64,000 bases of DNA from Peptococcaceae bacterium UBA5318. Lineage in GTDB: Bacteria > Bacillota > Peptococcia > DRI-13 > UBA5318. Made by a program: the position numbers and the translations under genes. Positions 10,468 to 41,977 of the stretch are shown here, one piece after another. The stretch is from positions 4,536-68,535 of the forward strand of contig DHRG01000013.1 in NCBI GenBank assembly GCA_002408285.1, written 5' to 3'. Below the pieces are notes generated by a model, which saw only the letters and a program-made list of their open reading frames with translations, did no database searches and was not told the origin of the DNA. Positions within the stretch are counted from its first letter, which is position 1, and every line of letters starts with the position of its first letter.

Positions 10468-10492
10468 CTGCCGACCCCCTTTCAATTTCAAT

Positions 10493-11992: not shown

Positions 11993-12041
11993 ATGGCATT
12001 CCTCCCTGAAAAATTTACCGCAAAAGCGTGATCGTCCGTTC

Positions 12042-12251: not shown

Positions 12252-13092
12252 GAGAAAGGATCATTCCTTCCTTGGCCGCTAAACATTGAGGGAAGCGGGC
12301 CCGAGCCAATTGTTCGATCTCATCAAGTTCCTGATCGCTTCTCCGGGGGCTGTGGTGAAATAAGATAAGCCTCCCCACGCCCGCTTGGCCGGCCAGTTTA
12401 ACAGCCTCCTGCCAGGTTGAGTGCCCCCAGCCTTTTTGAGCGGGGCGTCCCGCCTGCCCCAGATACTCCTCGTCGGTGTAGGTGGCGTCGTAGATCAGCA
12501 GGTCGCAGTCCCGGCAGAACTCCGCTAAGTTTTTATCCGTCACGGCATGATGCTCATGGTCGCCAAGATAACAGACGGAATGTCCGTTAAGCTGCAGGCG
12601 GTAAGCGGTGTTTCCCATGGGATGGTTGGTGGGGGCGGTTTTGACCGTTATTCCCCCCTCCAGGCCGAACTCCTGCCCTGCCTCTATTTCCCGGAAAACC
12701 ACCTCTGCCTTCATTTGTTCTAGTCCAATGGGGAAGAAGGGGGCCTGCATCTGCCTGGCGAAGAGTTCCGTCAGGGGAAAACCCGGTTTGCCTTCCCCAT
12801 AAACAGTGAAATGGTTCCCCCGGACAAAGGCCGGCTCAAAAAAGGGAAACCCGTGAATATGGTCCCAATGGACATGGGAAATGAGGAGATGGGCTTTTGC
12901 CGCACCGGTCCTTTCCATCCATTCTTGGCCGAGATTGCAGAGCCCTGTCCCCGCGTCAAAAATCACCTGGGTTGCTCCTGCCTGCACCTGGATGCAGGCG
13001 GTATTCCCGCCATATTTCAGGGTGTTTTTGCCGGGAACCGGTCTGGAACCCCTTACCCCCCAAAAGGTGACGGAGATTTGCACCGGGTTCAT
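12238..13092 (-). CDS. MBL-fold metallo-hydrolase (possible cyclic-nucleotide phosphodiesterase)
   Basis: The metal-binding motif HLLISHVHWDHIHGFPFF is followed by ...YLGDHEH..., ...DATYTDEEY... and ...WGHST... The phosphodiesterase role is inferred only from the adjacent cyclase gene. Confidence 0.75.
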   Translation of the reverse strand: MNPVQISVTFWGVRGSRPVPGKNTLKYGGNTACIQVQAGATQVIFDAGTGLCNLGQEWMERTGAAKAHLLISHVHWDHIHGFPFFEPAFVRGNHFTVYGEGKPGFPLTELFARQMQAPFFPIGLEQMKAEVVFREIEAGQEFGLEGGITVKTAPTNHPMGNTAYRLQLNGHSVCYLGDHEHHAVTDKNLAEFCRDCDLLIYDATYTDEEYLGQAGRPAQKGWGHSTWQEAVKLAGQAGVGRLILFHHSPRRSDQELDEIEQLARARFPQCLAAKEGMILSLSDS

Positions 13093-13187: not shown

Positions 13188-15032
13188 TTAATCTTCGGGC
13201 AAAATTCCCTCCAACTGGTAGACGGCCAGCCGCTGGCTCTTGCCTTTCACCGTTATTTCGCCGAGGCCGCTAACTTTTACCTGTTCTTTCACCCGTTCGT
13301 AAGTGGACTGGCTTAAGAGGATTTGCCCCGGCTTGGCATTGCTTTCCAGCCTGGCGGCGGTGTTGACCGTATCGCCGATGGCCGTATAATCCATGCGGAA
13401 CTGGGCCCCGATATTGCCGACGATGGCTTCGCCCGTATTGATGCCCACGCCGAAATCAACGGTGCGGCCGTATTTTGCCAGCAGCCGCTCCTTCATCTGT
13501 GCGCTCCCTTCCTGCATGACCCAGGCCGCCTGCGCCGCTTTCAGGGCATGGTCGGGCAAGTCAAGGGGCGCGTTGAACAGGGCCATGGCGGCGTCGCCGA
13601 TAAACTTATCCAGGGTCCCGCCATAGGCAAAGATGGCCCGGGCGCAAAGGTCCAGGTATTCATTGAGGACTTCTACAACTTCTTCGGGTTCGGCCTTTTC
13701 GGAAAAAGGCGTAAAACCACGAATGTCCGCAAACAGGACGGTTATTTCCCGACGCACCCCGCCCAGCTTGAGGCCGGCTTCGCCGGAGGTCAGGATTTCC
13801 TTGACCACCTGGGGCGCCACGTAGCGTCCGAAAACCGCGGTAACACGTTTGCGTTCCAGCAATTCTTCCAGGTAGTGATAAAAGAGGCCCAGCAGATAGC
13901 AGGCAACGGCCAGCCCCACCGGGTAGAGGAGGGACAACAGCCAACCTTTTTGATAGAGCAGCCTGGCCGTTGCTCCATAGCCGAGGATCAGGGCGGCGGC
14001 CACAAAGACAGCCCGCCCCGGGCTTAATTTGCGCAAGGCCCAGATGCTGACGCCGGTAAAAAGCAGCAGGACGGCCAGGATGGACCAATAGGGCGCCTGC
14101 TGTTTAAAGTCGCGGTATAACAGGTTCTGAATAATGTTGGCATGTATTTCTACGCCAAACATGGCGGTCTGGTGGTCCAGCGGCGTGGGATAGGAATCGT
14201 GGAGGCCGACGGCATAAGGCCCCACCAGGACGATCTTGTCTTCAAAATAGGCCGGAGGGATTTCGCCGTTCAAGACCTGGTAAAAGGAGAAGCGTTCATA
14301 ATCGCCGGGTCTTCCCTGGTAATTGATATGGATCCTGTTCCAGGGATCCGTGGGCACAAGGTCCGGGGAATAAGCCTGTCCCCTTGTCTGTAAATAGGCG
14401 TTGGCGATTTTCCAGGCAAAACTGGGGATGGTTTCTTCCTGGTAATCGTAAAAAAGAACCGTCTTTCGCACCACGCTGTCGGGGTCCGGGAAGGTATTGA
14501 CGTGCCCGCTGAGGGCCTGCGCCTTAAGCAGCGGTACGGCTTCCTTCAGGTCGGCGGGCTGCAGCTTGCTTCCGGTCCGGACTGTTCCGCTGAAATAACC
14601 CACCGCGGGCAAGACGGTATTTTCGGTTTTATCCAGGGCTTGGGCCAAGGCCAGATCCTCAGCCGGCTGGGGGTCCGGTTCGGAAAACAGGATGTCGATT
14701 CCCACCGCCGCAGGTTTCCCCTGCGCCAGCTTTTCCAGAAGTTCGGCATGGGTGCTGCGCGGCCACGGCCACCTGCCCAGTTTTTCCAGGCTGGGCTCAT
14801 CGGCGGCAATAATGACGATCCGGCTGTCCACCCGGCCTTTGCCCTGATAGAGCCAGTCCTGGGCCATATTGTCCATATTCTCCCCCACATTGGCATAGGA
14901 GAGGATGGCGAAAACAAGAAAGGCGACTGCCAGCAAGAAGGATAATTTTATTTTCAAAGGGGTTCCTGCCTTTCTCCGGCAATTTAAAAAACATGTTCCC
15001 ATTATCCTACCATTTTTTTCAGGACTTTTCAT
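13188..15032 (-). CDS. CHASE2 sensor domain-containing class III adenylate/guanylate cyclase
   Basis: The order is an N-terminal TM, a periplasmic CHASE2-like region (RIVIIAADEPSLEKLGRWPWPRSTHAELL...), three TM helices, then a cyclase domain: VTVLFADIRGFTPFSEK...GGTLDKFIGDAAMALFNAP...FGVGINTGEAIVGNIG...YTAIGDTVNTAARLES. The start could be the internal ATG at 15002. Confidence 0.85.
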   Translation of the reverse strand: MKSPEKNGRIMGTCFLNCRRKAGTPLKIKLSFLLAVAFLVFAILSYANVGENMDNMAQDWLYQGKGRVDSRIVIIAADEPSLEKLGRWPWPRSTHAELLEKLAQGKPAAVGIDILFSEPDPQPAEDLALAQALDKTENTVLPAVGYFSGTVRTGSKLQPADLKEAVPLLKAQALSGHVNTFPDPDSVVRKTVLFYDYQEETIPSFAWKIANAYLQTRGQAYSPDLVPTDPWNRIHINYQGRPGDYERFSFYQVLNGEIPPAYFEDKIVLVGPYAVGLHDSYPTPLDHQTAMFGVEIHANIIQNLLYRDFKQQAPYWSILAVLLLFTGVSIWALRKLSPGRAVFVAAALILGYGATARLLYQKGWLLSLLYPVGLAVACYLLGLFYHYLEELLERKRVTAVFGRYVAPQVVKEILTSGEAGLKLGGVRREITVLFADIRGFTPFSEKAEPEEVVEVLNEYLDLCARAIFAYGGTLDKFIGDAAMALFNAPLDLPDHALKAAQAAWVMQEGSAQMKERLLAKYGRTVDFGVGINTGEAIVGNIGAQFRMDYTAIGDTVNTAARLESNAKPGQILLSQSTYERVKEQVKVSGLGEITVKGKSQRLAVYQLEGILPED

Positions 15033-15062: not shown

Positions 15063-16709
15063 TTACTCCTGGTTTGGCAACCTGTATTTTTTCGGCCCAT
15101 AATGGAAGGCTTCGGTCGGGATGGCCACGCCGCAGGCTCTCAACTGCTGGGCCCGGGAAACAACGGCAGCCCCTTCCAACAGGTTGAAGGCGATTTGAGC
15201 GACGGTGCGGTTCCCTGGGTCCTCCAGGAAAGAGCCCTTGGTCCAGGCATTAAAAGCCCCCATGGCCGGCCCGCAAAAAATCTGATAATCAAGCTCCCGC
15301 CCTTTTTCTCCGGTAATGGCCCATTGGCTGGCCTTTCCCAAATACCAGCGAAACACCAGGGCCATTTTATGCCTGGGGTCCCTGGCGGCCCGCTGGAGCT
15401 GGCCGGGGTCCCTTTCTTGAAAAAAGCGGGCCGTCTCCTCCCATATTTTCTCCCAAGAGTCCCTGAACACGGTGGCCTCCACCTTCCGGCGAATATCCGC
15501 GGGTATTTGCTCCAGGGAGGAATAGCGCCGATAGAGGTCATACAACTGCGCGGCCCGGGGAGCAAACAGGGCGCCCAGCTTGAGCACCTGCACCTTGGCG
15601 CCTTGCTCGAACATATCCGCCGACGGGGCCATGGCCACGTCACTGATGTCCGCTTGGGCCAGCAGGGCTTTCCCCGCCTGGGAAAGACCGGATTCCACAG
15701 CGGCCTGATGGATCGTCCCTACCACGATATAAGCGGCGCCGTGCGCAAAGGCCGCCGCCGCCGCCGCAGGCGTGCCGATCCCGCCGGCCGCACCCACACG
15801 GATAGGACGGCGGTATGAAAAACGCCGCATGCACGCCTCCCTGGCCTGCAATACCGTGGGGAAAAGCGCCCCCAGGGGCCGATTGTCCGTATGGCCGCCG
15901 GAATCCGCTTCCACGGTAATATCTTCCGCCAGCGCGATTTGGGCAGCGCATTGGGCCTCCGCAGGGGATAGTTTGCCCTGCTCCACCAACTGCTCCAGCA
16001 GCCTGGCCGGCGGCGGGGACATAAACTGCCCGGCCAGCTCGGGCCTGGAGATTTTGGCGAAAAGGTAATGCTTCCTGTGGATGGCGCCCTGGGCATCGCG
16101 CCATAAGCCCTTGGCCGCATACCTGACCAGAGCGGGGGTGATCCCCAGGAAGGCTGAGGCCGAAAGGCGCAAGACGTTGTAATGCAGAAACAGATCAACC
16201 AGCAATTCTTCCCTTTGCGGCTCCTGGGGGGAATGGATCAGGTTGATGCCCCAGGATTTGTCCCCCGCGCCCTGTTGGATGACCTGAATAGCTCGCTCCA
16301 CCCGCGGCAGGGGCAAGCCGGCCGCGCCGAAAAAGCCCAGCAGATGGCGCCTGGCCATTTCCAGGACCATTTCTTCCGAGGCAATGCCATGGGCCATTTC
16401 ACCGCCGATATAGGGGAATTGGACCCCGTGCACCTCCTGAAAGCTGCGGTCCCCCAGCCACTCGGGATATTGGGGCGCCAATACGGCCAGCACCGGATAG
16501 CTCTGGGGAGCGGCGGACTCAGGCCGGGCAGGGGCGAAATGCCCGCCGACGGCCATGCCGACCGCTCCGCTCCCTTCGTCTCTGATCACATAGGTTTGTT
16601 GTCTGATATCCTTGAGCAGCCCGCCTGTTTCCCAGGGGAAAAAAGCCGGCTTCCTGTCGCCTTCAAGCCAAAAACCAATGGTGGGACGGCTTGTATCTGC
16701 CTGACGCAT
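15063..16709 (-). CDS. pfaD: PfaD-family trans-acting enoyl reductase (nitronate monooxygenase fold) of a PUFA-synthase-like PKS
   Basis: The product is 548 aa. It has a PfaD-like N-terminus (IGFWLEGDRKPAFFPWETGG...YVIRDEGSGAVGMAVGG) and a TIM-barrel FMN region (...GMAHGIASEEMV..., ...ITVEADSGGHTDNRP..., ...RVGAAGGIGTPAAAAAAFAHGAAYIVVGT...). Confidence 0.85.
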   Translation of the reverse strand: MRQADTSRPTIGFWLEGDRKPAFFPWETGGLLKDIRQQTYVIRDEGSGAVGMAVGGHFAPARPESAAPQSYPVLAVLAPQYPEWLGDRSFQEVHGVQFPYIGGEMAHGIASEEMVLEMARRHLLGFFGAAGLPLPRVERAIQVIQQGAGDKSWGINLIHSPQEPQREELLVDLFLHYNVLRLSASAFLGITPALVRYAAKGLWRDAQGAIHRKHYLFAKISRPELAGQFMSPPPARLLEQLVEQGKLSPAEAQCAAQIALAEDITVEADSGGHTDNRPLGALFPTVLQAREACMRRFSYRRPIRVGAAGGIGTPAAAAAAFAHGAAYIVVGTIHQAAVESGLSQAGKALLAQADISDVAMAPSADMFEQGAKVQVLKLGALFAPRAAQLYDLYRRYSSLEQIPADIRRKVEATVFRDSWEKIWEETARFFQERDPGQLQRAARDPRHKMALVFRWYLGKASQWAITGEKGRELDYQIFCGPAMGAFNAWTKGSFLEDPGNRTVAQIAFNLLEGAAVVSRAQQLRACGVAIPTEAFHYGPKKYRLPNQE

Positions 16710-17052
16710 CGCTTATCGTTCCTTTCTGAAAATCCCGGTAATCCCGGTGCCAGTCCAGGAAGCAAAAGGGCTTCATTTCACCCTTGACCACCAAGGCGGC
16801 CAGGAAATCCTTCCCGACCAGCCAAGACGCCCTCTCCCCCCGGTGCTCCGGTTCATTTTCCCAATAAATAACCCTCCCTTTCAGCAAGAGGATGCGGTAG
16901 GCCGCAGCCCTTTCCTGTTCCCGCTCATCCAAAATCTCTTCCCAGGGTTCGCCGGGTTCACTAACCTGGTCCAAATTCGCCGACCACAGATGGATGGCCC
17001 GCTCCAGCCCCTTGGCGTCAATCCTTCCCTTGCTCTGTACTTCTTTACTCAC
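16663..17052 (-). CDS. Hypothetical 129-aa protein with faint resemblance to the N-terminal half of an Sfp-type phosphopantetheinyl transferase
   Basis: IHLWSANLDQVSEPGEPWEEILDEREQERAAAYR recalls the vhvW...L...E..Ra..f opening of Sfp/PfaE PPTases. It is only about half the length of one. It overlaps the pfaD start by 47 nt. Confidence 0.3.
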   Translation of the reverse strand: MSKEVQSKGRIDAKGLERAIHLWSANLDQVSEPGEPWEEILDEREQERAAAYRILLLKGRVIYWENEPEHRGERASWLVGKDFLAALVVKGEMKPFCFLDWHRDYRDFQKGTISDASGRYKPSHHWFLA

Positions 17053-17119
17053 TGAAATTCACCCCTCTCCCCTTGCTCTTTTCCAGGGGGGCGCCCCTCC
17101 TCCCCTGCGCTTCTCCATC

Positions 17120-19564
17120 TTATCCATGAAGCCACGCGGAAAACTCCTCCAGCCAGTTCTCCTTCGCGGCGTCTTCGTTGCCGGGCCGCCCGGCTCCAGC
17201 GTGATTTAACACCCGCAAGGTTTCCGAGGATTTATCATCCAGTTCCCTTAAGACCTGGAGAATGACGGCCCGAGCTTCATCTAAGGCCGCCTCCTGCCTG
17301 AGTTTTTCCACTTTGCCTTGGAACAGGCCATCGCCGGGAGAAGGGGTTTCGGCTGCCAAGGGCGGCCCGGTGGTATTTAAGGCCGTGAGAATTTTTTCCT
17401 TCCGTTGGGCATAGGGTAAAGCCGCCAACTCGGCGGGCCAAAGGGGTGGGCCGAGATGGACGGATTGCCTGCCGTAGCGATAGGGAAACTCCAATTTCTG
17501 CGCCAAAGGTTCCAGGGGCAATCCCCCGGCGAAACGCACCGGCACAAGGGGAAGCTGGAGTTCTAAGGCCAGGTCGATAAACACGGAACTGACTTTTTCC
17601 ACGGGTTTTCGGCATTGCAGGGCCCGTGTCCCTTCCGCATGGACGAGGAGGGAGAGGCCTTGCTCCCGTATTTTCTGCCTGATGTCTTGCAGCAGGTGAA
17701 GGAGGGAGGCTTGGTCCTGACGGTCGAAATAGAAGACATGGAGCAAACTGCCGTTGATCCCGGGGTATTGACCCATTTTCTCCAGCAGTTGGCCGATCCA
17801 GGTGCTTTTTTGATGCTCCTTTTTGGCAATGATGCCCACGGGCTGCCTGGCCAGCGCCGAGGTAAGATAGATAAAGAGGTGGGCTTCCACCGTCGTTTGG
17901 TGATTGGCCAGATAGAGCACAGGCCTGGCCTGCTCCAGCAGGGCCTGATAAACCGCCGCGTCTTCTACCTGGTACTCGCTGATGAATTGCCGGGCCAGCC
18001 CGGCGAAAATATCCTCCGCAACCCATTCCTGGAGGCCCAGCCGCTCTCTCCAGTATTGCCTGGCCTTAGCAATGTCCAGCTTCTCCGCGGCTCCCTTCAC
18101 CAAGATCCCTGCGCCCTTTTCCTGGCTGAACAGACGGTAGCGCCGCAGGGGGAATTCCGGATGGTACGCCTGGCAAAGGGATCCGCCTTCCTCCTCCAGG
18201 ATGATCTCGGCGGGATGTTTTTGCAACTGCGCGGCCACATACTCTTTGACGGCGATCCATGTGGTCTTCTTCTTCTCCGTCTGAGCCCCGGGGAGGGCAT
18301 AGACCTGTTCCAGGGCGCCGGGGAACCAATCCTGTTCTTTCACCCTGTCCAGGGGGAGAAAAAAGCCGTCCTCCCCTTGGTCGCCCAAGCTTGCCCCCGG
18401 AAGATAGTCTTCCTTCAGCAGAAAGCGTTTGCGGTCTCTCCTGGATAGTGCGCCCCATCTCCCTTGGGGAAAACAAATCCCCACCAGTTTCAGGGCCAGA
18501 ATGCTTTGCTCTCCCGCCGACATCGCAATGTCAAATTGCGGGAAACGCCTGTTTTCCTCGCGAAAACCGGCAAATCTCACCTCGCAGCGGACCTCGCCCG
18601 TCCTGGGAACAGGCGCATAAAATTCCACCCAGGGAACTTGCCGGGGATAACAAAAAAATTGTTCCATCGCAGGATCGGTCCACAGGGACAATTCATCATA
18701 GGGGATGGTCTGCAGCAGGCCGTCCAGCAGCCTGGGGTTTAAAATTCCGCCGGGCGCCGGACCGGGCATGGCGCTTGTTGCGGCGCTCGGCGCGGCGCTT
18801 AGTTGGGCGCGGGAGCCGTTGGCGCCGTAAAACAGCCGTTTGATAACCCGCAGCCGCGGTCCATGGAAGCAGAGATCCTGTCCGTAGGGATCTTCGATGG
18901 GCTGCGGCTCCTCGAGTTCCGGAAGGGCCGAAGGACGGGGCTTCTGGTAGTCATCACGGATTTCCACGTCGGCCGTCATCAGTGGTTCAAAGCGGGAGAG
19001 AGCAGCCGTTCCGGCTTCCCGCCAATACAAAAGGGTTGCTTTGATCCGGTGGGGGGCCAAAGCCGCAAGCTCCGTTTTGATCAGCTGCCGCTGCCCGCAC
19101 ACCAACCAGCGGTGCACCTGTACATCCCGCATGACGGTAATGACCTGCCGGGGATAGCTTTTTTGCACCTGTTGGGCTATTTTATCCAGCATGAACATAA
19201 AGGGGTAAGCCGGCAGGGTGTAGGTCGGGCAATGATCCCAGAGCCACTCCTCCCTTTTCGGGTCAATCCACACCGCCTCCCCCTCGCCGGCTGCGGCGGC
19301 AAAGGGAAGCCTTGTCAAGTCGGCAGCCTCCAGCAGGGAAGACATGGTGCGCACATAGGCTTGCCAGGCCGCGCTCATCTGCCGGACATGGTGCCGGTGA
19401 ACCGCGCTGAGTCCTTCATATAAATCAAGGATCTGCCGCGACCGCCCGTCTGCGGGATCTTCCCCGCTCCGGGCCGGGGCTGCCGGCCTTTTCGCCTCAT
19501 ACATGGCCATCACACCCGGAAGCTGGGGCGCAGGCTCCAAGGTCTGGACCTCACAGGAATTCAT
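17120..19564 (-). CDS. PKS-type dehydratase (double hot-dog) fused to a C-terminal PlsC/LPLAT (AGPAT-like) acyltransferase
   Basis: The N-terminal part carries WLWDHCPTYTLPAYPFMFMLD and a later LLDGLLQ (DxxxQ-like) motif. The C-terminus carries acyltransferase blocks: LANHQTTVEAHLF (an NHxxxxD-like block with E), HAEGTR (FPEGTR-like) and LPLVPVRF. I prefer the start at 19564 (GGGAGG 8 nt upstream, 14-nt overlap with psd) over 19603. Confidence 0.75.
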   Translation of the reverse strand: MNSCEVQTLEPAPQLPGVMAMYEAKRPAAPARSGEDPADGRSRQILDLYEGLSAVHRHHVRQMSAAWQAYVRTMSSLLEAADLTRLPFAAAAGEGEAVWIDPKREEWLWDHCPTYTLPAYPFMFMLDKIAQQVQKSYPRQVITVMRDVQVHRWLVCGQRQLIKTELAALAPHRIKATLLYWREAGTAALSRFEPLMTADVEIRDDYQKPRPSALPELEEPQPIEDPYGQDLCFHGPRLRVIKRLFYGANGSRAQLSAAPSAATSAMPGPAPGGILNPRLLDGLLQTIPYDELSLWTDPAMEQFFCYPRQVPWVEFYAPVPRTGEVRCEVRFAGFREENRRFPQFDIAMSAGEQSILALKLVGICFPQGRWGALSRRDRKRFLLKEDYLPGASLGDQGEDGFFLPLDRVKEQDWFPGALEQVYALPGAQTEKKKTTWIAVKEYVAAQLQKHPAEIILEEEGGSLCQAYHPEFPLRRYRLFSQEKGAGILVKGAAEKLDIAKARQYWRERLGLQEWVAEDIFAGLARQFISEYQVEDAAVYQALLEQARPVLYLANHQTTVEAHLFIYLTSALARQPVGIIAKKEHQKSTWIGQLLEKMGQYPGINGSLLHVFYFDRQDQASLLHLLQDIRQKIREQGLSLLVHAEGTRALQCRKPVEKVSSVFIDLALELQLPLVPVRFAGGLPLEPLAQKLEFPYRYGRQSVHLGPPLWPAELAALPYAQRKEKILTALNTTGPPLAAETPSPGDGLFQGKVEKLRQEAALDEARAVILQVLRELDDKSSETLRVLNHAGAGRPGNEDAAKENWLEEFSAWLHG

Positions 19565-20483
19565 CAAGATTCGCCTCCCTATCCTTTCGGGCTTGGCGGC
19601 CAACAGCCTCTCCCGCCAATACCTTCACCTCATAACCCTTTTCGGTCTGCAGCAGGATATCTTCATCAACCGCAGCCGTCCCTTTCTCCAAAAACAGCAG
19701 GATGGTCGAGCCGCCCAGCTTGAAGTAGCCTTTTTCCTCTCCCCTGGCAACGATGGCGTCCGGCCGATAGATTTGCACGATGGAACCCACAAAAGCGGCG
19801 CCGATCTCCACGTAGGCGATGTCCCGGAAGTTCGCGGACCGCAGGATGCTGACTGCCCTCTTGTTCCGGCAAAAAAGCGCCGGGATGGCCTGCAAGGCCA
19901 GGGGATTCACGGAATAGTAACAGCCTTTGAGGCCTTTGCTGGCGGTGCACCTTCCGCTGTCGATGAAATGGAAGCGATGGTAGTCGGCCAGCCCAAGGCG
20001 CAAGGCCAGGCATACCCCGCCTTGATACTTGCGGGCCAGCCCCCTGTCCCCCAGAAGCTCTTCCAGGGTGTAAGAAAAACCTTTGACCTGGATCACGCGC
20101 TCAATGTCGATATTGGCCCAGGCCCGCATCTTCCCGTCCCCGGGCGATACGAGGAGACGGGGATCCGCCGCAAACTTGCGGGCTTCCGGTTTGAGCTTCC
20201 GGGCAAAGAAGGCGTTAAAATTGGGGAAATCTTGGGGCTCCTGGAGGCACTCCGACAGATCGAGGCCGTGCTCTTCCGCAAAGCCTTTGATTTTACGGGC
20301 GCTGAAGGGAAAATCATGCAGCTTGCCAAGGATAAAGGGGTAAATCTTCCGTTTCAACAGCAGTTCAAGCCCCAGCCGGCCCAGGGCCGTATGGTAGATG
20401 CGCCTGATCGCCTCTTCGCCCGCCACCTTCTCGGTTTCATAGCCCTTCGTTTTTCTGTTGTAAATTTGATAGCTTTTGCTCAT
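19551..20483 (-). CDS. psd: Phosphatidylserine decarboxylase proenzyme
   Basis: Family-typical segments are present: ...FFARKLKPEARKF..., ...LADYHRFHF... and the self-cleavage region GYFKLGGSTILLF. Confidence 0.85.
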   Translation of the reverse strand: MSKSYQIYNRKTKGYETEKVAGEEAIRRIYHTALGRLGLELLLKRKIYPFILGKLHDFPFSARKIKGFAEEHGLDLSECLQEPQDFPNFNAFFARKLKPEARKFAADPRLLVSPGDGKMRAWANIDIERVIQVKGFSYTLEELLGDRGLARKYQGGVCLALRLGLADYHRFHFIDSGRCTASKGLKGCYYSVNPLALQAIPALFCRNKRAVSILRSANFRDIAYVEIGAAFVGSIVQIYRPDAIVARGEEKGYFKLGGSTILLFLEKGTAAVDEDILLQTEKGYEVKVLAGEAVGRQARKDREANLDEFL

Positions 20484-20539
20484 GCGGCCTCCCCCCTCTC
20501 ATCTTCTCAGCTTCTCACCGTCTTCTATCTTCTGATATC

Positions 20540-21151
20540 TTATATTCTGAGCAAGCCCGTGATGATGGCCGCCGGAATGAGTACATACAACGACTTGGTA
20601 AACCAGCCGTTCTTATCATAGCGGAAGGAGGAATTCATCAGGAGGGCCAAGAGGATAAACAAAGGATAGCAAAAAGAGAGGGGTCCTCCCCGGAAAAAAG
20701 CCAGGTACAGGATGAGGGCCAGGAAGACCAGGGCGCCGGCGTGGGTCGTACAGAGCCCTGTAAAGCAGTTTTTGCCCCGAACCTTGACCAAGCCTTCCAG
20801 GTTATAATTGGCCAGCCGCCACAGGCCCGACAGGGCGTAGAGATAAAGGGCCCCTCCGGCCGGCAGGCCCTTAAAACCCAGGGAATAGGCCATGAGGGCC
20901 GGAAGGACGGCAAAATTAACAACATCGGCCAGGCTGTCCAGTTCCCTGCCAAACTCCGTTTCCAACTGAAGTCTGCGGGCCGCCATTCCGTCCAGCCGAT
21001 CGGACAGCAAAGCCAGGGCATAAAGGACCAAGGCCGGCTGATAACTTTCTTGTGAAAATAGCAGGTAGGCGCTAAGCCCCGCGCCTAGGGAAAAGGCCGT
21101 GATGAGATTGGGAAGATTGAGATGTTTCAGGGTGGGAAAAATTTTAAGCAT
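20540..21151 (-). CDS. pssA: CDP-alcohol phosphatidyltransferase, most likely CDP-diacylglycerol--serine O-phosphatidyltransferase
   Basis: The motif DRLDGMAARRLQLETEFGRELDSLAD fits D-G-x2-A-R-x8-G-x3-D-x3-D. The protein is polytopic. The PssA assignment is supported by the adjacent psd. Confidence 0.75.
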   Translation of the reverse strand: MLKIFPTLKHLNLPNLITAFSLGAGLSAYLLFSQESYQPALVLYALALLSDRLDGMAARRLQLETEFGRELDSLADVVNFAVLPALMAYSLGFKGLPAGGALYLYALSGLWRLANYNLEGLVKVRGKNCFTGLCTTHAGALVFLALILYLAFFRGGPLSFCYPLFILLALLMNSSFRYDKNGWFTKSLYVLIPAAIITGLLRI

Positions 21152-22877
21152 GTTGCACCTCCGCGAAGTGCCTTTTCATATAGAAGTATTCCTCGGAGAA
21201 CCCATGCACGCCCTGGCGCCTGAGGATTTTTTTCCCGATCAGGGGATGGCCGTACAGCGAATTTACCAGGGCCAAGGCCTCTTCGTAGCCGATCCCCTCC
21301 TTGATCCCATAGGTGGAGGGTTCGTCCGCCACAACGCGCCCTTCCTTGGCAACGATGCCGTACTGCTCCAGATGCCTGTCGATATGGCTGCCCTTGGCCA
21401 AAACCCAGGGGTTGGCGCTGATCACGGCTATTTTGTCATGGTTCCTTTCCAGAAAAGCAATGGTCTCCTGGGCCTCCTCCCTGGTTTCCGAGGGGAACCC
21501 AAACATCACATGCAATTCCACGGCAATGCCGTTTTCAGCGCACTTATCCAGCGTAAGCTGGGCGGTTTCCCGGCTGTAGCCCTTGCGCATCGCCGAGACA
21601 ATCCGCCGGCACCCTGATTCAAAACCGAGGGAAAGAAAGCGGCAGCCGGCTTGGGCCGCCAGTCCGATACTATCCGGCAGCCCTTTTTCAAAACGCATCA
21701 TCGTGCCGAAACGGATGTTGATTCCCTCCTGCAAAATCCGCTCCGCTAAAAACCGCAGGGTTGCAGGGGCCATGGCTTCATCGGCAAAGACGATAAAATC
21801 TATGCCGTAGTCCTCGCGATACAACCGAATATTCCGGATGATCCTTTCCGGGGGCAGCGGGCGCCACTTGCTCCCAATCGTTTCGGCCAGCGCGCAAAAG
21901 GCGCATTTGTTCCAATAGCAGCCGCGGGAAGACATCAGCGGCGCAAAGACCAGGGGCGTCAGATATTTTTTGCCTACCGGCAGACCCTTTAAGTCCAGCA
22001 GGGGCAATTTAGCAGGCTCCATGGTTTTCGCCTGGCGATTGATTTTCAGGACCTCCCCCTTCCGGTCGTAGTAGAGGAGCCGGGGGAGCCCCCCAGGCTG
22101 TTCCTTCTTCTCCAGGCAGCGGCACAAGGCCAGCAGCGGTTCTTCGCCTTCCCCGTAAATACCGAAGGGCTGTAACAGCCGGCGCAGGCCCTCTTCCTGT
22201 TTGTTCCCGGCGCAGCCCGTACCGCTCCCGTCTTGGACGGCATCGCACAGGAGGGAAAAAAACGAGCCCCCGCATACCATCGGAACTTTCAAGGCGCTTC
22301 TTATTTCCGCGGTCAGCGCCAAGCCGGGGTACAACTGGCTCTCGTAATTATAGGAGAGGCCGATCAAGTCCGGCTGAAATGCGGCGATCTGCGGGATCAG
22401 CTTTTTTTGATAGTAGGCCAGGAAGGGGTTTTCCCCTGCGTTCTCCAGCATGCCTTCCCTTGAATAAAGACAGTTCAGCGTATAGATGGTGGGCAAATTC
22501 GCCAAGGACGTAAACAGCAGGACATTGTTGACGGCTGCGGTCGCTCTCTCGAAGTTATCCTTGGTGACGGCGAAGCCTTCTTCGCGCCACACCTCTTGGA
22601 CAACGGCAAAATCCTCCTCGATCCCGCCGCTGACTTTACTTATCTCTTCTTTTTGCGGATAAGAGCATGCCGGACCCACGGAGGCTAAGAAGCCCTTGGC
22701 CTCTTGAATTTTATCCCGCAGCCTTTCCGGAAACAGCTGAAAATGCAGGAACTCTATGGAAGCGTCAATCGTGGCCACCTCGAGGCCCTCCTGGCGCAAA
22801 TAGGAGGATAAGGCCATGATACTGAGTGGGGGTGTAAAAGGCGCCAAACCGGGAGGGCTTAATAAAACAACTTTCAT
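21144..22877 (-). CDS. B12-binding-domain-type radical SAM enzyme
   Basis: The N-terminus is Rossmann-like ([34 protein letters not shown]...DLIGLS). The cluster motif is SSRGCYWNKCAFCAL, and FLSLGFESG and later barrel strands follow. The three Cys are spaced Cx4Cx2C. Confidence 0.8.
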   Translation of the reverse strand: MKVVLLSPPGLAPFTPPLSIMALSSYLRQEGLEVATIDASIEFLHFQLFPERLRDKIQEAKGFLASVGPACSYPQKEEISKVSGGIEEDFAVVQEVWREEGFAVTKDNFERATAAVNNVLLFTSLANLPTIYTLNCLYSREGMLENAGENPFLAYYQKKLIPQIAAFQPDLIGLSYNYESQLYPGLALTAEIRSALKVPMVCGGSFFSLLCDAVQDGSGTGCAGNKQEEGLRRLLQPFGIYGEGEEPLLALCRCLEKKEQPGGLPRLLYYDRKGEVLKINRQAKTMEPAKLPLLDLKGLPVGKKYLTPLVFAPLMSSRGCYWNKCAFCALAETIGSKWRPLPPERIIRNIRLYREDYGIDFIVFADEAMAPATLRFLAERILQEGINIRFGTMMRFEKGLPDSIGLAAQAGCRFLSLGFESGCRRIVSAMRKGYSRETAQLTLDKCAENGIAVELHVMFGFPSETREEAQETIAFLERNHDKIAVISANPWVLAKGSHIDRHLEQYGIVAKEGRVVADEPSTYGIKEGIGYEEALALVNSLYGHPLIGKKILRRQGVHGFSEEYFYMKRHFAEVQHA

Positions 22878-25800
22878 CAGGTGTTGCTCCTTTCCTCAAA
22901 GGCAACCGCCAGCATCAGCTTGATCCTGTTTAACTGGTTTACCTCGCTCGCGCCCGCATCATAATCCACCGGAATGATATTGGCCTGGGGATACCTTCTT
23001 TTCAACTCCTTCATCATTCCTTTCCCCGTTATTTGGTTGGCCAGGCAGGCAAAAGGCTGGACGCACACGATATTCCCGACGCCGCTCTCCAACTGCTCCA
23101 GCATCTCGCCCGTCAAGTACCAGCCTTCGCCGGCCTGATGGCCCAAAGACAGGAGCTCGCCGGCCCTTGCGGCCATGTCCCTCAGCGTGGGAGGCGCTGT
23201 AAACTTGCGGCTGCCTCGCAGCGCCTTTTTCATGTCTTGGCGGTAGTACTCCAGCACTTCTATGACAATTTTATCCGCCCACAGCTTCCTTTTGCTCCAG
23301 GAAAGCTTCTTGTATTTGAAGTCGGAGTCAGAGGCATTATAGAGGAGATAATTCATGAGGCCGGGGAGTATGACTTCCACCCCGCTGTCCTCCAGGATTT
23401 CCACGATATTGTTATTCCCCAGGGGATGGTACTTGACAAAGATCTCGCCCACCACCGCCACCTTGGGTTTGCTGATCTCCCGGGTTTCCAGGGCGTCGAA
23501 GTCCTCCACAATCCCGTAGAGGTTCTTGGAAAACTCGGCCTGACTGCCGCTGCCCACGGACTCCCTGCACCTTTCCACCCATTGTTCATACAGGCGCTTG
23601 GCAGCCCCCGGAATTTTTTCATAAGGCCTCACCTGGTGCAATACCTGCAGCAACAGGTCGCCGTAAACAATGCTCATGATAAACCTCTTGAGCAGGCCCG
23701 GAGTCATGTGGACGGCCTGAGGGCCGCCGCCCAGGGCCGTAGGAACGAAGGGGATTACCGGTATGGCCGCCAAGCCGGCGGCCGCCAGTCCTTTCTTCAT
23801 AAAGCCGAGGTAATTGGTGGCCCGGCACATCCCCCCCGTCTTATAGACGGCCACGGCGATATTATCCAGGTCATACCGGCCGGAGCGCAAAGCCTTGATG
23901 CACTGGCCGATGAGAACCACGGCGGGGTAGCAGGCCTCCTGAGTGACATATTTCAGGCCCTCCTCCAGCACATCCCTGGCTTCGGCCGGCCCTGCGGCCA
24001 AGACCTCCAGATCGTAGCCGCAAGCCTGGAAGGCCGCCTCAAAAAACTGGTCGTGGAAAGGGGACAACTGGTAGAGCAAAATTTTAGGCTTTGCGGCCTT
24101 TGCTCTTGGGGGCAATTGCGCGTTCCCGGACTGGGCCGCCTGCAACAAGGGGGGCGCGGTCTTTCTCTCCTCAAGGGCCGCTTGCAAAGAGCGGAGCCGG
24201 ACCCTGAAGATGCCCTTTTGACTCATTTCATCGATTTTAATGGCGGTATGGATCTTCCGGCCCTTTTTCAAGAGCTCCCTGACCTGTTCCAGGGCGATGG
24301 CATCAAGACCGCAGCCGAAGGAATTGAGCTGAACCAACTCCAGGTTGTCACGAGCGCTCACCAGGGCGGCGGCCGCGTAAAGCCTGGACTGGTACATCCA
24401 CTGGTCGACGAAGAGAAGAGGCCTTTCGATCCGGCCCAAGTGGGCAAGGGACTGGACGGAGAGCACGGCCATCCCTAGATCCAGGATCATCTCGTCAATC
24501 CTGTGATTGACCTCAGGGTCCAGGTGATAGGGTTTGCCCGCCAGCACGATCCCCGTTGTTCCCGTTCGTTCCAGGTACTCCAGGGTTTCCTCGCCTTTTT
24601 TCCGCAGATCCTCCTTGACCTGCCCAACCTCTTCCCGGCCCCGCGCCACCGCGGCGGCTATTTCTTTTTTGGTGACGCCGAACTCTTGCAATTCCTCAAA
24701 GAGCCTTTGCGCCAGCCTTCCTTCGTCATGGTACGGTAAAAAGGGGCTTAAGAAGCGAACCTGCCCGTCCCGCAGGATGTCCATATTATTCCGGATGACC
24801 TCGGGATAGGAGGTCACAATGGGGCAGTTGTAGTGGTCGTCGGCTCCCGCCATCTCCTTTTGCTCATAGGGAAGGCAAGGATAAAAAATCGTTTTGATCC
24901 CCCGGCGAACCAGGGAGGCGATATGCCCGTGGACCAATTTCGCAGGATAACACAGCGTTTCCGAAGGGATGGTGTCCATGCCCTCTTCATAAATGGCCCG
25001 GGAGGAAAGGGGGGACAGTTCTACCCTGAACCCCAGGCTGGTAAAGAACACGAACCAGAAGGGATAGTTCTCGTACATATTGAGTACCCGGGGCAGGCCG
25101 ACGGCGCCCCGGGGGGCTTGCTCCAGGGGTAAGGGGATGTAGGAAAACTTCCTTTGCAATTCATAAGCGAAGAGATTGGGGATCTCCTTGTTTTTGCGGT
25201 TATCACCGGCCCCCCGCCGGCATTGATGGCCCGAGACAATCCTGGCGCAGTGGTTAAAGGTATGGATGGCGACGGCGCAGTGATTCGGGCATTTCTCACA
25301 CCTTTGCAAGGTTTGCAGGACCCGCAGTTCCCGCAACTGCCCCTCTTGGAGCAAGGTGCTCTCCTGCCCTTCCCGGTACCCCTCCCGGGCGGCCAGGGCC
25401 GCCCCCAACGCCCCCATCAGGCCCGCCAGCGCGGGTCTGACCACCTTTCTTCCCGCCAGGAGTTCAAAACAACGCAAGACGGCGTCGTTTAGAAAGGTCC
25501 CGCCCTGGACGACGATGTTCTCACCCAGATCCGCGGGGTTTCTGACGTTGATCACCTTTATCAGCGCGTTTTTGATCACCGCGTAGGATAAGCCTGCGGC
25601 GATGTCCGCCAGGGAAGCGCCCTCCTTCTGGGCTTGTTTGACTCTGGAATTCATAAAAACGGTGCACCTGGTGCCCAGATCAACGGGCTGCTGCGCCGCC
25701 AAGGCGGCGGTGGCGAATTGCCCGATATCCATGTTCAAGGATTTAGCAAATGTTTCCAGGAAGGACCCACAACCGGCCGAACAGGCCTCGTTCACGAGAA

Positions 25801-27136
25801 TGCCGGCGATGGCGCCCTCCCGTATTTTCAGGCACTTCATATCCTGCCCGCCGATATCCAGGATGAAATCAACCCCGGGCAGAAATTTGCGGGCGGCCTT
25901 GTAGTGGGCGATGGTTTCTACCACGCCGAGATCGAGGCCCAGGGCGGTTTTCAACAGCCCTTCCCCATAGCCTGTTACCGCCGAATTGGCGATGACCGCC
26001 TGTGCCGGCAGACGCCGGTAGATCTGGCCCAGGATTTCCCGGGCTTTCTCCAAAGGCCTTCCTTCATGATTGGCGTAGTAGGAATAGCGTATCTCCTCTT
26101 CTTCATCGATCAGCACGGCTTTGATGGTGGTAGAGCCCGCGTCGATTCCCAGAAAGCAGCGGCCTTGCCAAGGGCCCTGCTCCTTGGTCTTCCCTGTTGC
26201 AGCCTGATGCCTCCTGTAAAAATCGGCTTTCTCCTGCTGATCCCTGAACAAGGGTGTCAGCCGCTTAACCTCCTCGGCCTCCATCTCGCCTGTGGACAAC
26301 ACTTTTTCCCGGAAAGCCGCAAAAGGCCTGCTTGCTTCCCCGCCGGCCGCCAGGGCCGCCCCGGCGGCCGCCAAAACAAGGGAATTCTCGGGCAGAATAG
26401 CAGCCTGCTCCGCCAGGCGCAAGGTTTCCTTGAATCTTTGCCGCAGGGCGGGCAAATAGGTAAGGGGGCCGCCCAAAAACAGCACCTTGCCTTGGATGGG
26501 CTTGCCGCAGGAAAGGCCGCTGACAATCTGGTTGACCACCGCCTGCAAAACGGAGGCGGCGATATCCTCCCTGCCGACGCCCTCGTTGATCAGCGGCAGG
26601 ATGTCCGTCTTGGCGAACACACCGCAACGGGAGGCGATGGGGTAGATGGTCGTATACCCGGCGGCAAGCTTGTCAAGGCCTGCCGGGTCCGTGTTCAGCA
26701 GCGCGGCCATCTGGTCGATGAAAGCCCCGGTCCCCCCGGCACAGATCCCGTTCATTCTCTGGTCGATGCCCGTTTTTTCAAAATAAAGGATTTTAGCGTC
26801 TTCGCCCCCCAGTTCAATAGCTACGTCCGCTTTTTCCCCGAGGGTCCTCAGGGCCTTGGCGGTGGCCGCCACTTCCTGGACATAGGCGGCTTCCAGCCAG
26901 CGGGCCAGGAGCACGCCCCCGGAACCCGTGAGGGCGAGGGTGATGTCCGCCCCCCCCAGGGCCGGCGTGGCTTGCTCCACCAACTCCGCCAGGGTCTCTT
27001 TTATCCTGGAAAAATGCCGCCTGTAGCTGCCGTACAAAAGCGTCTTGCCCTCCAACGCCACCAGTTTTATGGTAGTGGAGCCTATATCCAGCCCCACCTG
27101 CAACAATCTTTTTTCTTTGCCCATGCCCTTTACCAT
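22877..27136 (-). CDS. 1419-aa fused BCR/HAD-family protein: two BcrAD/BadFG-type activase ATPase domains plus 2-hydroxyacyl-CoA-dehydratase-like domains (PlsA/PlsR- or Ger-like candidate)
   Basis: There are two acetate/sugar-kinase-fold ATPase modules ([15 protein letters not shown]... and [15 protein letters not shown]...). A Cys-rich segment follows ([27 protein letters not shown]). The C-terminal half is HgdB/D-component-like and ends ...[38 protein letters not shown]. Confidence 0.8.
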
Positions 27137-35900: not shown

Positions 35901-36515
35901 AATGCGCCCAGCCACCACACTTCCCAACAGCCCGGGGAAAGAGCTTTCCCGCCAGGGCAGGTGGTTGCCGGCAATCCGGTCGCAAACCTCCTCTATCTTC
36001 TGCTCCGGCAGCCCGCTTTCTCTCAGCCCTTGCGCCCAAAGGGACCTTTGCACACTGCTGCCCAAATGGATGGCAAGCTCCGTACCGGAAGTCACGCCCA
36101 GGATAACGCTGGTTTTTTCTTTGTTCAGGTTTTTAAATTGGAAGCGGCAAGCCTCCTCCAGAACTCTTTGGGCCACGACTAAGGCTAAAAGCTGGCAAGT
36201 ATCCGTCGCCTTTAAATTATGGGGCGGAATGGCAAACTCCAGGGGATCAAAAACTATGTCCGGGAGAAAGGCGCCCCTTTTGCAATAGGTTTTATCGGGA
36301 GCCGCGGGATCAGGATGATAGTAATCGTCTATCAGCCAGTGAGAGCAGGGAACATCCGTGATGAGGTCCTTTCCTTCAAGAATGTTTTTCCAGCAAGCTC
36401 CCCGGTTGTCTCCTCCGGGCAATAAAGCGCTGATCCCCACAACGGCGATGGGTTGACAAGGTTCCACCAGGATTTTCACCTTCCTCCGGTCGGTTATGCC
36501 TGATTGGTCCAGCAC
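32916..36515 (-). CDS. PfaA-like type I PKS/FAS: ketosynthase - acyltransferase - single acyl carrier protein
   Basis: The KS shows TIVDAACGSSL, EAHGTGT and IGHTKAAAG, plus the Pfa-type segment SHWLIDDYYHPDPAAPDKTYCKRGAFLP. The AT shows FPGQGSQY, LAGHSYGE and TAFHS. The ACP shows [16 protein letters not shown]. Confidence 0.9.
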   Translation of the reverse strand: MLDQSGITDRRKVKILVEPCQPIAVVGISALLPGGDNRGACWKNILEGKDLITDVPCSHWLIDDYYHPDPAAPDKTYCKRGAFLPDIVFDPLEFAIPPHNLKATDTCQLLALVVAQRVLEEACRFQFKNLNKEKTSVILGVTSGTELAIHLGSSVQRSLWAQGLRESGLPEQKIEEVCDRIAGNHLPWRESSFPGLLGSVVAGRIANHFDLQGTNTIVDAACGSSLCAVSMAILELQSGKADLVITGGADTQNDIFMYLCFSNILALSPTGDCRPFSRQADGTVLGEGIAMVALKRLADAEKDGDPIYAVITGLGSSSDGRAKSIYAPRAEGQVLAVRRAYEAAGYGPDTVELVEAHGTGTRAGDAAEFAGLARVFPGEGKKQWCALGSIKSQIGHTKAAAGAVGLFKAVMALHHQVLPATIKVDQPNPNLKIEDSPFYLNTQSRPWIRGLDHPRRAAVSAFGFGGSNFHVTLEEYRKPGNRPAKLRTMPYELFLLAGRSPEELLRQGQGLLEEISACPSGSWTPSVRNGWHVALAKQAQAQYDPERAYRLALVSSNLDDLAAKIKQSLERIGTKPEQALDLSAGIYYATKRMTGKIAFLFPGQGSQYLNMGRDLALHFDCAREVWDRAAELAAGPQGEKLHDFVFPRPAFDGETRKLQEDCLTDTRIAQPAIGAMSLSLLAVLKQLGLQADLLAGHSYGEITALAAAGVFSEDAMLHVAKKRGELMQETSGNKGAMTSVFLPPAEAEALLKRLNLSVVVANINSPEQVVVSGPEEEIRQLEAACKQQGLPFIRLPVSTAFHSALVEPSVKPFRQYLQGVAFQKSAVPVYANLAAKPYPEEPESMKDLLARQIANPVRFAELIGRMAGEGVGLFIEVGPGGVLTGLAKQCLTGQDVKAVATDGKGQHGILSLLQAVACLSVLGVKLDYSCLWSGYGSLQDPRDEKKPAYPVKINGANYGKPYPQKNKSIDRQVSTMNQKERQQREQTGREHTREQEVSSVSLDLIQKQMTEAHLAFQKALTESHQAYLGFSEKLLAALTGQRPAAIPEKDGPAGEEQGLWQQAEHSLLELAHADQAGLIAGKSAAPPLPAEIPGYSGQEPVAGRGSGDGGKPSLSVRETVLEVVSEKTGYPVELLDLDSDLEAGLGIDSIKRVEILATVQERLAESLDAEPPDPDNSLPLALHTLKEIIAFLEQRVKKN

Positions 36516-39080: not shown

Positions 39081-41977
<2,897 letters not shown>

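Follow-up and report, generated by a model that had tools for sequence, protein, structure and literature searches.

A gene island of Peptococcaceae bacterium UBA5318 that joins an acyl-chain synthase to phospholipid head-group and ether genes: a candidate route to a specialised ether glycerophospholipid

We describe here a gene island of Peptococcaceae bacterium UBA5318 (assembly GCA_002408285.1, contig DHRG01000013.1) in which an iterative acyl-chain synthase stands together with an acyltransferase, with the enzymes CdsA, Pss and Psd of a route to phosphatidylethanolamine (PE), with an ester-to-ether reductase of the PlsA type and with an enzyme of the radical S-adenosylmethionine (SAM) superfamily. 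The island lies in a stretch of 64,000 nucleotides, which we analysed as a whole and call the window (table 1). The same gene order was found in five other independent loci, a recurrence indicating that the linkage is more than chance, and the association of synthase, acyltransferase, CdsA, PlsA and Pss (plus Psd) is conserved across two phyla. Based on gene content, intact catalytic motifs, conserved linkage and purifying selection, we hold with moderate confidence that the island is dedicated to one specialised ether glycerophospholipid. A preliminary description of this DNA had proposed a complete specialised glycerophospholipid; the enzymes and the conserved linkage are indeed there, while the product itself is predicted. 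All the parts come from known families, and their combination was not found in the literature searched (most subscription journals lay outside it).

Gene content and extent of the island

The open reading frame (ORF) listing of the window returned the nine genes of the preliminary description, and inspection of the junctions agreed with it on their coordinates and overlaps. Pfam and NCBIfam searches likewise agreed with the family that had been proposed for each of the nine proteins. The CdsA and PlsA genes overlap by 7 nt, the PlsA and radical SAM genes have base 22877 in common (ATGA), and the radical SAM and Pss genes overlap by 8 nt. Psd and the dehydratase (DH)-acyltransferase gene overlap by 14 nt if the latter starts at ATG 19564, which has a good GGAGG site and is also picked by gene callers (814 amino acids, aa). 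Junctions are thus tight or overlapping throughout the block from CdsA to the DH-acyltransferase, and only 11 nt separate the two synthase genes encoded further upstream.

The extent of 15063-36515 that was proposed at first holds for these nine genes but not for the limit of the unit, which runs on to about position 6253. The whole unit covers ~6.3 to 36.5 kb, with a GC-rich core at ~8.6-36.5 kb where GC content is ~0.58, compared with ~0.45 on both flanks. Beyond the nine genes, it takes in an ABC exporter, a CHASE2 cyclase, a hydrolase of the metallo-beta-lactamase (MBL) fold, two surface proteins and two AraC regulators. The GC content of the island exceeds that of its flanks in three genomes, and the island is accessory and was probably acquired horizontally.

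Table 1. Features of the island, with their coordinates in the window
Feature	Coordinates	Strand	Evidence
KS-AT-ACP subunit of iterative synthase (N-terminal half of PfaA)	32916..36515	-	Pfam ketoacyl-synt 1e-57, Acyl_transf_1 1.5e-46, PP-binding 3.5e-7
KR and PKS-type DH subunit (C-terminal half of PfaA)	30571..32904	-	Pfam KR 1.9e-32
GC-rich hairpin, candidate bidirectional terminator	30519..30547	.	11-bp stem, 9 GC pairs; between stop codons of the convergent ABC and KR-DH genes
MsbA/HepA-like ABC half-transporter with C-terminal cNMP-binding domain	28341..30515	+	Pfam ABC_membrane, ABC_tran, cNMP_binding 3.3e-24 (residues 618-704)
Divergent control region, CdsA operon versus ABC gene	27973..28340	.	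Promoter-like site and conserved blocks
CdsA, phosphatidate cytidylyltransferase	27130..27972	-	Pfam CTP_transf_1 3e-44
Single-chain PlsA/PlsR- or Ger-type ester-to-ether reductase, 1419 aa	22877..27136	-	Two BcrAD_BadFG and DUF2229
Class-B-type (putative B12-domain) radical SAM enzyme	21144..22877	-	Pfam Radical_SAM 3.9e-16
CDP-alcohol phosphatidyltransferase, probable phosphatidylserine synthase (Pss)	20540..21151	-	Pfam 4e-20
Psd, phosphatidylserine decarboxylase	19551..20483	-	Pfam 1e-53; NF001941 373.6 bits vs cut-off 371
Hot-dog (PS-DH-like) domain and PlsC-type acyltransferase, candidate chain off-loading enzyme	17120..19564 (ORF to 19603)	-	Pfam PS-DH 2e-5, Acyltransferase 3.5e-11
Remnant of PfaE/Sfp-type phosphopantetheinyl transferase gene	16663..17052	-	Aligns to ends of intact P. 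terephthalicicum ORF
PfaD-type enoyl reductase	15063..16709	-	TIGR02814 617 bits vs cut-off 449
Membrane CHASE2 sensor fused to class III nucleotide cyclase	13188..15032	-	Pfam CHASE2 5e-66, Guanylate_cyc 5e-30
MBL-fold hydrolase, candidate cyclic-nucleotide phosphodiesterase	12238..13092	-	Pfam Lactamase_B_2 1e-22
Secreted NHL-repeat protein with Cu_amine_oxidN1 domains	10493..12043	-	Pfam; N-terminal hydrophobic segment; 51% orthologue in L007
Surface protein (domains: FecR, Flg_new, Shr-like HID)	8638..10503	-	Pfam; 45% orthologue in L007
Two AraC-family regulators	7453-8358 and 6253-7179	-	Pfam

Relatives and rarity of the cluster

The same cluster was found on a 252-kb ENA scaffold (L002; 84-94% protein identity), where two synthase genes are fused into one gene for a 2011-aa protein, and in Pelotomaculum terephthalicicum JT (L011; 72-84% protein identity). 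It is also present on a metagenome contig with 95-97% nucleotide identity to the JT locus (L013/L015), in which PlsA and the phosphopantetheinyl transferase (PPTase) are intact. Pelotomaculum sp. PtaB.Bin104 (P0003) has a 76% homologue of the radical SAM enzyme. Two versions of the cluster are without the radical SAM gene. On a Firmicute-like contig (L007) the order is CdsA-PlsA-Pss-Psd-(FabA x4)-acyltransferase, and in Desulfamplus magnetovallimortis (L008/L012) a PfaA-like protein is followed by a 2295-aa protein, which carries ketoacyl synthase, FabA and acyltransferase domains in this order, and then by CdsA, PlsA and a CDP-alcohol transferase.

An alignment scan with the DH-acyltransferase over one genome per species gave matches in 2 of the 185,579 species, namely P. 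terephthalicicum and Desulfamplus. When metagenomes were scanned with the same protein, 29 loci were obtained. Two of these are the cluster as seen in P. terephthalicicum, and the remaining 27 hold relatives of 30-44% identity with PfaA-like genes upstream; none of these 27 loci has a gene for CdsA, PlsA, Pss, Psd or the radical SAM enzyme. The metagenome scan thus indicates that a synthase terminated by an acyltransferase is a wider, known type (type L; PMC4882568), to which the head-group and ether module is a rare addition. We found neither a description of the cluster nor the lipids of its two named hosts in the literature searched, and the earlier remark that no described cluster combines all these functions held there as well. 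One host, P. terephthalicicum, is in culture, which makes the predictions testable, although in the type strain plsA appears to be damaged.

The PlsA-type reductase and the head-group enzymes

The large 1419-aa protein had been likened to PlsA/PlsR or Ger, and our profiles and alignments bear this out, for it is a full-length, single-chain homologue. It contains two stretches of PF01869 (BcrAD_BadFG, 4e-50) and one of PF09989 (DUF2229, 7e-90), which make up the BBD core conserved in PlsA/Ger-type proteins (PMC13159169). Hundreds of clostridial proteins of ~1430 aa, unnamed or automatically named, align with it at 55-57% identity and 99% coverage, and these alignments to single-chain homologues show that the chain also includes the C-terminal part equivalent to PlsR. 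The plsA-plsR genes of Clostridium perfringens jointly measure 4.2 kb and the single-gene plsA of Enterococcus faecalis 4,248 bp (PMC12838417), lengths which fit a protein that is PlsA plus PlsR in one chain. Two BcrAD_BadFG domains, DUF2229 and a C-terminal region, in one chain of ~1415 aa, are what the window protein has in common with PlsA-PlsR of C. perfringens, with the single-gene PlsA of Enterococcus, Lactococcus and Bifidobacterium (PMC12838417, PMC9702350) and with Ger of Thermotoga maritima and Desulfatibacillum (PMC13159169). There is no settled sequence rule that tells vinyl-ether (PlsA) from alkyl-ether (Ger) formation (PMC13159169, PMC13274423). A 1692-aa homologue (P0046) that could be taken for a CdsA-PlsA fusion proved to be a PlsA of the generic kind, lengthened by an internal duplication and encoded among unrelated genes.

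The PlsA copies linked to the cluster are 63-90% identical among themselves, Desulfamplus included. Generic clostridial PlsA proteins are 72-78% identical among themselves and 55-60% identical to the cluster copies. These identities within and between groups indicate that the cluster copies form a clade of their own and moved together with the cluster. The generic homologues are stand-alone genes among housekeeping genes, whereas the window copy belongs to the separate, cluster-only clade and lies in an operon with head-group enzymes.

The three head-group enzymes are intact at the level of motifs. CdsA has a full match to the PROSITE-type signature (residues 238-264), Pss keeps the motif D51xxDGxxAR...GxxxDxxxD, and Psd has the LGGST motif of the cleavage site (GST site). 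The adjacent Psd gives context support for serine as the substrate of Pss. In clostridia, phosphatidate is converted to CDP-diacylglycerol, phosphatidylserine, PE and plasmenyl-PE, the ether being made last (PMC9702350). The set of CdsA, Pss, Psd and PlsA matches this route step by step, which supports a dedicated ether phospholipid.

All four of these enzymes are ordinary in kind, and PlsA homologues are widespread in Clostridia as stand-alone genes among housekeeping genes. They could therefore be regarded as common membrane-lipid genes that stand beside a type I fatty-acid-like synthase by chance or for housekeeping, with no dedicated product. We consider this improbable, since the block accompanies the synthase in more than one phylum, with a PlsA clade of its own, is compositionally foreign in three genomes, has genes that overlap one another and is absent from all but 2 of the 185,579 species representatives. 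This last result leads us to infer that other species, presumably including the remaining Pelotomaculum, must use other genes for these steps.

If the island is dedicated to one ether lipid, it has some bearing on how PlsA is understood. PlsA-type enzymes have so far been viewed as stand-alone genes that act on bulk membrane lipid. A PlsA in one operon with a chain synthase, an off-loading acyltransferase and a head-group route predicts instead a single defined ether phospholipid, and the island offers a natural system in which to ask what PlsA recognises.

The synthase and its acyltransferase

The synthase is split over two genes, the first matching the N-terminal half of the PfaA model TIGR02813 (957.6 bits, model positions 8-954) and the second its C-terminal half (297 bits, positions 1877-2567). 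Each half scores below the whole-protein cut-off of 1010 since the gene is split. Active sites are present in the ketoacyl synthase (KS; C222/H358/H396), acyltransferase (AT; GHSYG) and acyl carrier protein (ACP; GIDS) domains of the first subunit, and in the second the ketoreductase (KR) and DH domains keep the motifs YxxxN, H523...P, YxxxHGPSF and D700xxxQ. The KS-MAT-ACP-KR-DH order of PfaA-like proteins (MAT, malonyl acyltransferase) is thus complete with its catalytic residues, and a PfaD-type enoyl reductase is encoded in the second operon. A single ACP (PP-binding) domain was found (residues 1119-1169), not tandem ACPs. Profile searches revealed only one KS in the cluster and neither a chain-length factor (CLF) nor a FabA-type dehydratase/isomerase, the DH-acyltransferase giving no FabA signal even at E<=0.5.

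Given the established roles of FabA-type and polyketide synthase (PKS)-type dehydratases in the synthases of polyunsaturated fatty acids (PUFAs), one KS, one ACP and the lack of CLF and FabA make a polyunsaturated product unlikely. As judged from its domains, the synthase resembles a pared-down iterative system that is fully reducing. The term "Pfa-like" used in the preliminary description is overstated for a system with so reduced a set of domains.

The DH-acyltransferase carries a PF01553 Acyltransferase domain at residues 543-678 (TIGR00530 reaches 41 bits, below its cut-off of 103), and its motifs NHQTTVE and EGTR are invariant in four sequences. An AlphaFold2 (AF2) model built on a shallow alignment was unusable, with a mean confidence (pLDDT) of 42. 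Residues 1-76 and 87-812 match the two ends of a 1660-aa protein of L007, whose central ~820 residues contain four FabA stretches. The window protein is, as the alignment reads, a deletion derivative of this FabA-rich protein.

A PlsC-family acyltransferase placed behind dehydratase-type domains is the mark of type L (myxobacterial) PUFA synthase clusters, whose Pfa3 ends in an AGPAT domain (1-acylglycerol-3-phosphate O-acyltransferase) (PMC3098273, PMC4882568), and the window has this arrangement too, together with PfaA-like KS-AT-ACP-KR-DH and PfaD. For such C-terminal AGPAT domains of type L synthases it has been proposed that the fused acyltransferase supplies a special sn-2 chain (PMC4882568). 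The Desulfamplus relative keeps a full KS-CLF-FabA-acyltransferase protein. The window differs from type L in having one KS and one ACP and no CLF or FabA dehydratase/isomerase, and no type L cluster in the literature searched is described with CdsA, Pss, Psd, PlsA, a radical SAM enzyme or an exporter gated by cyclic nucleotide.

The small ORF counted earlier as a cluster gene, which lies between the DH-acyltransferase and PfaD, is a decayed pseudogene. Residues 3-62 and 58-128 of this 129-aa ORF match the two ends of a 272-aa ACPS-domain ORF of P. terephthalicicum, the ACPS core being deleted, so that it is a PPTase fragment with no catalytic core and not a real gene. The PPTase gene is intact in L011 and L013, and L002 retains its last 31 codons only. 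Such a distribution indicates that the ancestral cluster had its own PfaE-type PPTase. Priming of the ACP in the source genome would then have to rely on a PPTase encoded elsewhere; PPTases located away from the pfa cluster are known (PMC4882568).

The radical SAM enzyme

The protein encoded between PlsA and Pss had been called a B12-type radical SAM enzyme. Its radical SAM core is clear (PF04055, 60 bits against a cut-off of 29.5) and an AF2 model (pLDDT 84) shows the class-B fold, but the match to the B12-binding domain (PF02310, 25.2 bits) is below the cut-off of 32.1. In Foldseek searches with the model, TsrM was the best match (6e-18), followed by OxsB, AprD4, MgmA and TokK, and identity to all solved structures is 12-17%. 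The architecture is of class B according to this model. With these enzymes, which apart from AprD4 are cobalamin-dependent, and with PhpK and TIGR04072 (lipid biosynthesis B12-binding/radical SAM protein), the window protein shares the order of a Rossmann-type domain at the N-terminus and a radical SAM barrel behind it. It differs from them in the insertion of ~110 residues that interrupts the Rossmann-type domain and in its invariant cysteines C320-x4-C325-x2-C328, spaced CX4CX2C instead of CX3CX2C. Its scores are also far below the family cut-offs (PhpK 87 against 600 bits, TIGR04072 82 against 360 bits).

Neither this enzyme nor any of nine relatives reached a curated family in NCBIfam, PhpK, TIGR04072, HpnJ, rSAM_ocin_1 and BchE included. 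A word-index search with only ~7 relatives had made the family look rare, a view discarded after an exhaustive search yielded 843 representatives at E<=1e-30, which make up a large branch that lacks annotation. Its closest members outside the cluster (48% identity) have as neighbours a pyridoxal-phosphate (PLP) decarboxylase, an AMP-ligase, GNAT-like proteins, hexapeptide transferases and GT4, a non-lipid setting that gives no usable lead for function transfer. Some distant relatives (P0177, P0186, P0190, P0191, P0193) are very large, at 1.8-2.3 thousand residues, and are matched in four to seven stretches each, which look like radical SAM modules in tandem.

The enzyme was added to the cluster in one lineage only, as the versions in L007 and Desulfamplus are without it. 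Among the clusters the radical SAM gene and the FabA block exclude each other, FabA being present with no radical SAM gene in L007 and Desulfamplus, and the reverse being true of Pelotomaculum. With very few lineages compared, this pattern is suggestive of a functional replacement.

Most characterised class-B enzymes are methylases, and it is only for this reason that we take methylation as the most likely reaction. AprD4 is cobalamin-free and shares the fold, which therefore guarantees neither the use of cobalamin nor methylation. The island gives a genetic handle on this uncharacterised B12-type branch in a lipid setting, which bears on the branched and ether lipids of anaerobes that are used as environmental proxies. 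For the bacterial membrane-spanning lipid synthase (Mss) of T. maritima and T. ethanolicus, no B12 domain is described in the paper on that enzyme.

The exporter and the cyclic-nucleotide module

The ABC exporter gene, convergent with the synthase operon and divergent from the CdsA operon, was regarded at first as a mere separator of the two, its C-terminal cyclic nucleotide monophosphate (cNMP)-binding domain having been missed. We count it as part of the system. At 94% identity in L002 it is the best conserved gene of the cluster, it is present in L002, L011 and L013, and its cNMP domain has the canonical phosphate-binding cassette FGE...RTA. NCBIfam similarities include HepA- and MsbA-type exporters.

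The membrane cyclase has four hydrophobic segments, the metal-binding Asp residues D436/D480 and a K477/T551 pair. These Asp residues and the Lys/Thr pair suggest ATP as the substrate, and the enzyme is probably an adenylate cyclase on this evidence. Its orthologue in L007 (53%) adjoins the cluster. The MBL-fold hydrolase, with a 49% orthologue in L007, matches weakly both NF041851, a cyclic-nucleotide-degrading phosphodiesterase, and Apyc1. The AraC pair lies directly after PfaD in L002, L011 and L013, from which it appears that the four signalling and surface genes were inserted between PfaD and this pair in the window. The same four genes (45-53% identical) are found upstream of CdsA in L007, and linkage in two different arrangements indicates that they work with the cluster. 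Exporter, cyclase and hydrolase would make a complete second-messenger loop around the transport step, which suggests a direct control of a lipid exporter by cyclic nucleotide.

These genes also lend themselves to a different view of the product, in which it is an exported lipid (a signal, a surfactant or an envelope-layer lipid like the heterocyst glycolipids) and not a membrane constituent, its release being triggered by an external cue sensed by CHASE2. The strong conservation of the exporter with its cNMP-binding domain, its similarity to HepA- and MsbA-type proteins and the fact that sensor cyclase, hydrolase and two surface proteins are linked with the cluster in either of two arrangements agree with such a role. 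However, the pathway would end in an ordinary class of bilayer lipid (PE or plasmenyl-PE), glycosyltransferase and outer-layer assembly genes are absent from the cluster, and MsbA-type proteins also act as flippases within the membrane. On balance we see an exported product as possible but rather unlikely. The heterocyst glycolipid system of cyanobacteria (type F of Shulse and Allen) is similar to the window in combining a Pfa-related synthase with a dedicated exporter of the HepA/MsbA kind. It differs in that the product predicted for the window is a phospholipid and not a glycolipid, with no glycosyltransferase, and in that the window exporter has a cNMP domain and predicted gating.

Automatic defence annotation could be misled by this module, as PADLOC Pycsar models match the cyclase domain (PycC, 1.8e-30) and the cNMP domain at the C-terminus of the ABC protein (effector models, 3e-14), domains that are simply shared. 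Read together with the weak Apyc1 match of the hydrolase, these hits would make cyclase, cNMP-binding effector and hydrolase a Pycsar-like anti-phage module with no relation to the lipid genes, which we regard as extremely improbable. The matches are at domain level only and span generic cyclase and cNMP domains. A Pycsar system pairs a soluble pyrimidine cyclase with a cNMP-activated transmembrane or TIR effector, whereas the cyclase here is a membrane CHASE2 sensor with a Lys/Thr pair of the purine type and the supposed effector is a complete ABC exporter, kept in clusters with no adjacent cyclase. We did not retain the Pycsar reading of the signalling genes.

The predicted route and its weighing

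In the route that we propose for a dedicated ether phospholipid, all substrates and products are predictions, and so are the acyltransferase acceptor, the type of ether, the radical SAM reaction, the cargo of the exporter and the identity of the nucleotide. The KS-AT-ACP and KR-DH subunits and the PfaD enoyl reductase would build an acyl chain on their own ACP, primed by a PPTase encoded elsewhere in the genome. The PlsC-type acyltransferase domain would off-load the chain onto lysophosphatidate to give phosphatidate, which CdsA would convert to CDP-diacylglycerol, Pss to phosphatidylserine and Psd to PE. The PlsA-type reductase would turn the sn-1 ester into a vinyl (or alkyl) ether, and the class-B radical SAM enzyme, whose gene lies in translational coupling between those of PlsA and Pss, may add a further modification, most likely a C-methylation. 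The ABC half-transporter is expected to flip or export the lipid when cyclic AMP (cAMP) binds its cNMP domain, the CHASE2 cyclase making cAMP and the MBL-fold hydrolase removing it. Transcription would be under the two AraC regulators.

Several points weigh against this route. A lipid product is known for no host. The acyltransferase motif is HX4E instead of HX4D, and the best NCBIfam model for Pss, pssA, scores 80.9 bits, below the cut-off of 107, which bears on serine specificity. The radical SAM enzyme has a CX4CX2C motif, reaches no curated family and has its nearest outside relatives in a non-lipid context. In L002, L011 and L013 the cyclase does not adjoin the cluster, and the PPTase of the cluster has decayed both in the window and in L002. 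In JT the plsA-like gene (L011 2833-6364) has a frame-shifting deletion of 715 bp relative to the 96%-identical L013, which takes out most of the second ATPase domain, and the ABC gene (L011 3-1780) is apparently frameshifted. Together with the split of the DH-acyltransferase in L013, the two JT lesions show that the island is dispensable and not intact everywhere, and it may be decaying in some lineages.

The same lesions could mean that the island as a whole is a decaying, non-functional relic, as could the PPTase remnant of the window (nearly gone in L002), the loss of the FabA region relative to L007 and the repeat elements inserted between genes. All other reading frames of the window are nevertheless intact with their catalytic motifs, and PPTases outside the pfa cluster have precedent, as noted above. 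The ratio of nonsynonymous to synonymous substitution rates (dN/dS) between the window and L002, an 87-94% relative, is 0.14-0.34 for all eight genes compared. As both lineages are without the PPTase, selection continued after its loss. On these grounds a relic seems to us very unlikely.

A bolder version of the dedicated ether-lipid route, which we put forward tentatively and think rather doubtful, is that the Pelotomaculum lineage exchanged one means of disordering an acyl chain for another. With the FabA block it would have lost the enzyme activity that installs cis double bonds, and in its place would have come a class-B radical SAM enzyme acting on the saturated chain or on the ether lipid, perhaps as a methylase of an unactivated carbon. 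The product would be a modified plasmenyl- or alkyl-ether PE not seen before, and the extracellular CHASE2 sensor would switch on its flipping or export through cAMP that binds the ABC transporter directly. If true, no lipid-modifying member of this radical SAM branch would have come before it, nor any lipid exporter gated by cyclic nucleotide and tied to a synthesis line of its own.

Noncoding features and neighbouring genes

In the divergent control region a promoter-like site for the ABC gene (28287-28316) has 11 of 12 matches. Two blocks, at ~28283-28294 and ~28208-28235, are invariant in four genomes and include the -35 box of this site; a hairpin-repeat insertion of ~120 nt in the region is found in the window only. 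A two-hairpin repeat element of ~125 nt is present in three copies, located at 7255-7330(+), 12042-12230(+) and 28040-28185(-), always between genes of the island, the last copy lying in the leader of the CdsA operon. The element folds far better than shuffled sequences (z = -7.5) and has no match in Rfam. None of the 44 related loci contains it, and it looks like a genome-specific element of the REP/MITE kind.

An ORF of 138 aa upstream of the synthase operon (orf138, 36540-36956(-)) was rejected as a member of it. It has no family match, and within it lie a hairpin of 16 bp resembling a terminator (36749-36712) and the promoter-like site of the synthase operon (36587-36553), so that it is unlikely to be a gene. 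A short way beyond the border of the high-GC island are a skipping-rope sRNA (37342-37427(-), Rfam RF02924, 65 bits) and a tRNA-Ser(TGA) gene (38895-38984(-)). No integrase was seen, and a tRNA-linked insertion of the island is only a possibility.

Further on, a T-box leader (42080-42276(-), 127 bits) precedes a D-3-phosphoglycerate dehydrogenase gene (40391-42013) and then a seryl-tRNA synthetase gene (39081-40361). These serine-related genes are ordinary housekeeping genes that merely happen to be neighbours of an island with a phosphatidylserine synthase. The chromosomal replication origin also lies within the window (43641-62213), with dnaA, dnaN, recF, gyrB and gyrA on the minus strand and yidC, mnmE, mnmG and a parA-like gene on the plus strand. 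The sign of the GC skew switches at ~50-53 kb, and dnaA is ~15 kb from the island. On the low-coordinate side of the island are a short ORF, possibly truncated, in which only the beginning of a methyltransferase domain is present (4442-4828(+)), a DtxR-type iron-dependent repressor (2416-2832(-)) and a ferritin-like DUF2383 protein (5009-5437(-)).

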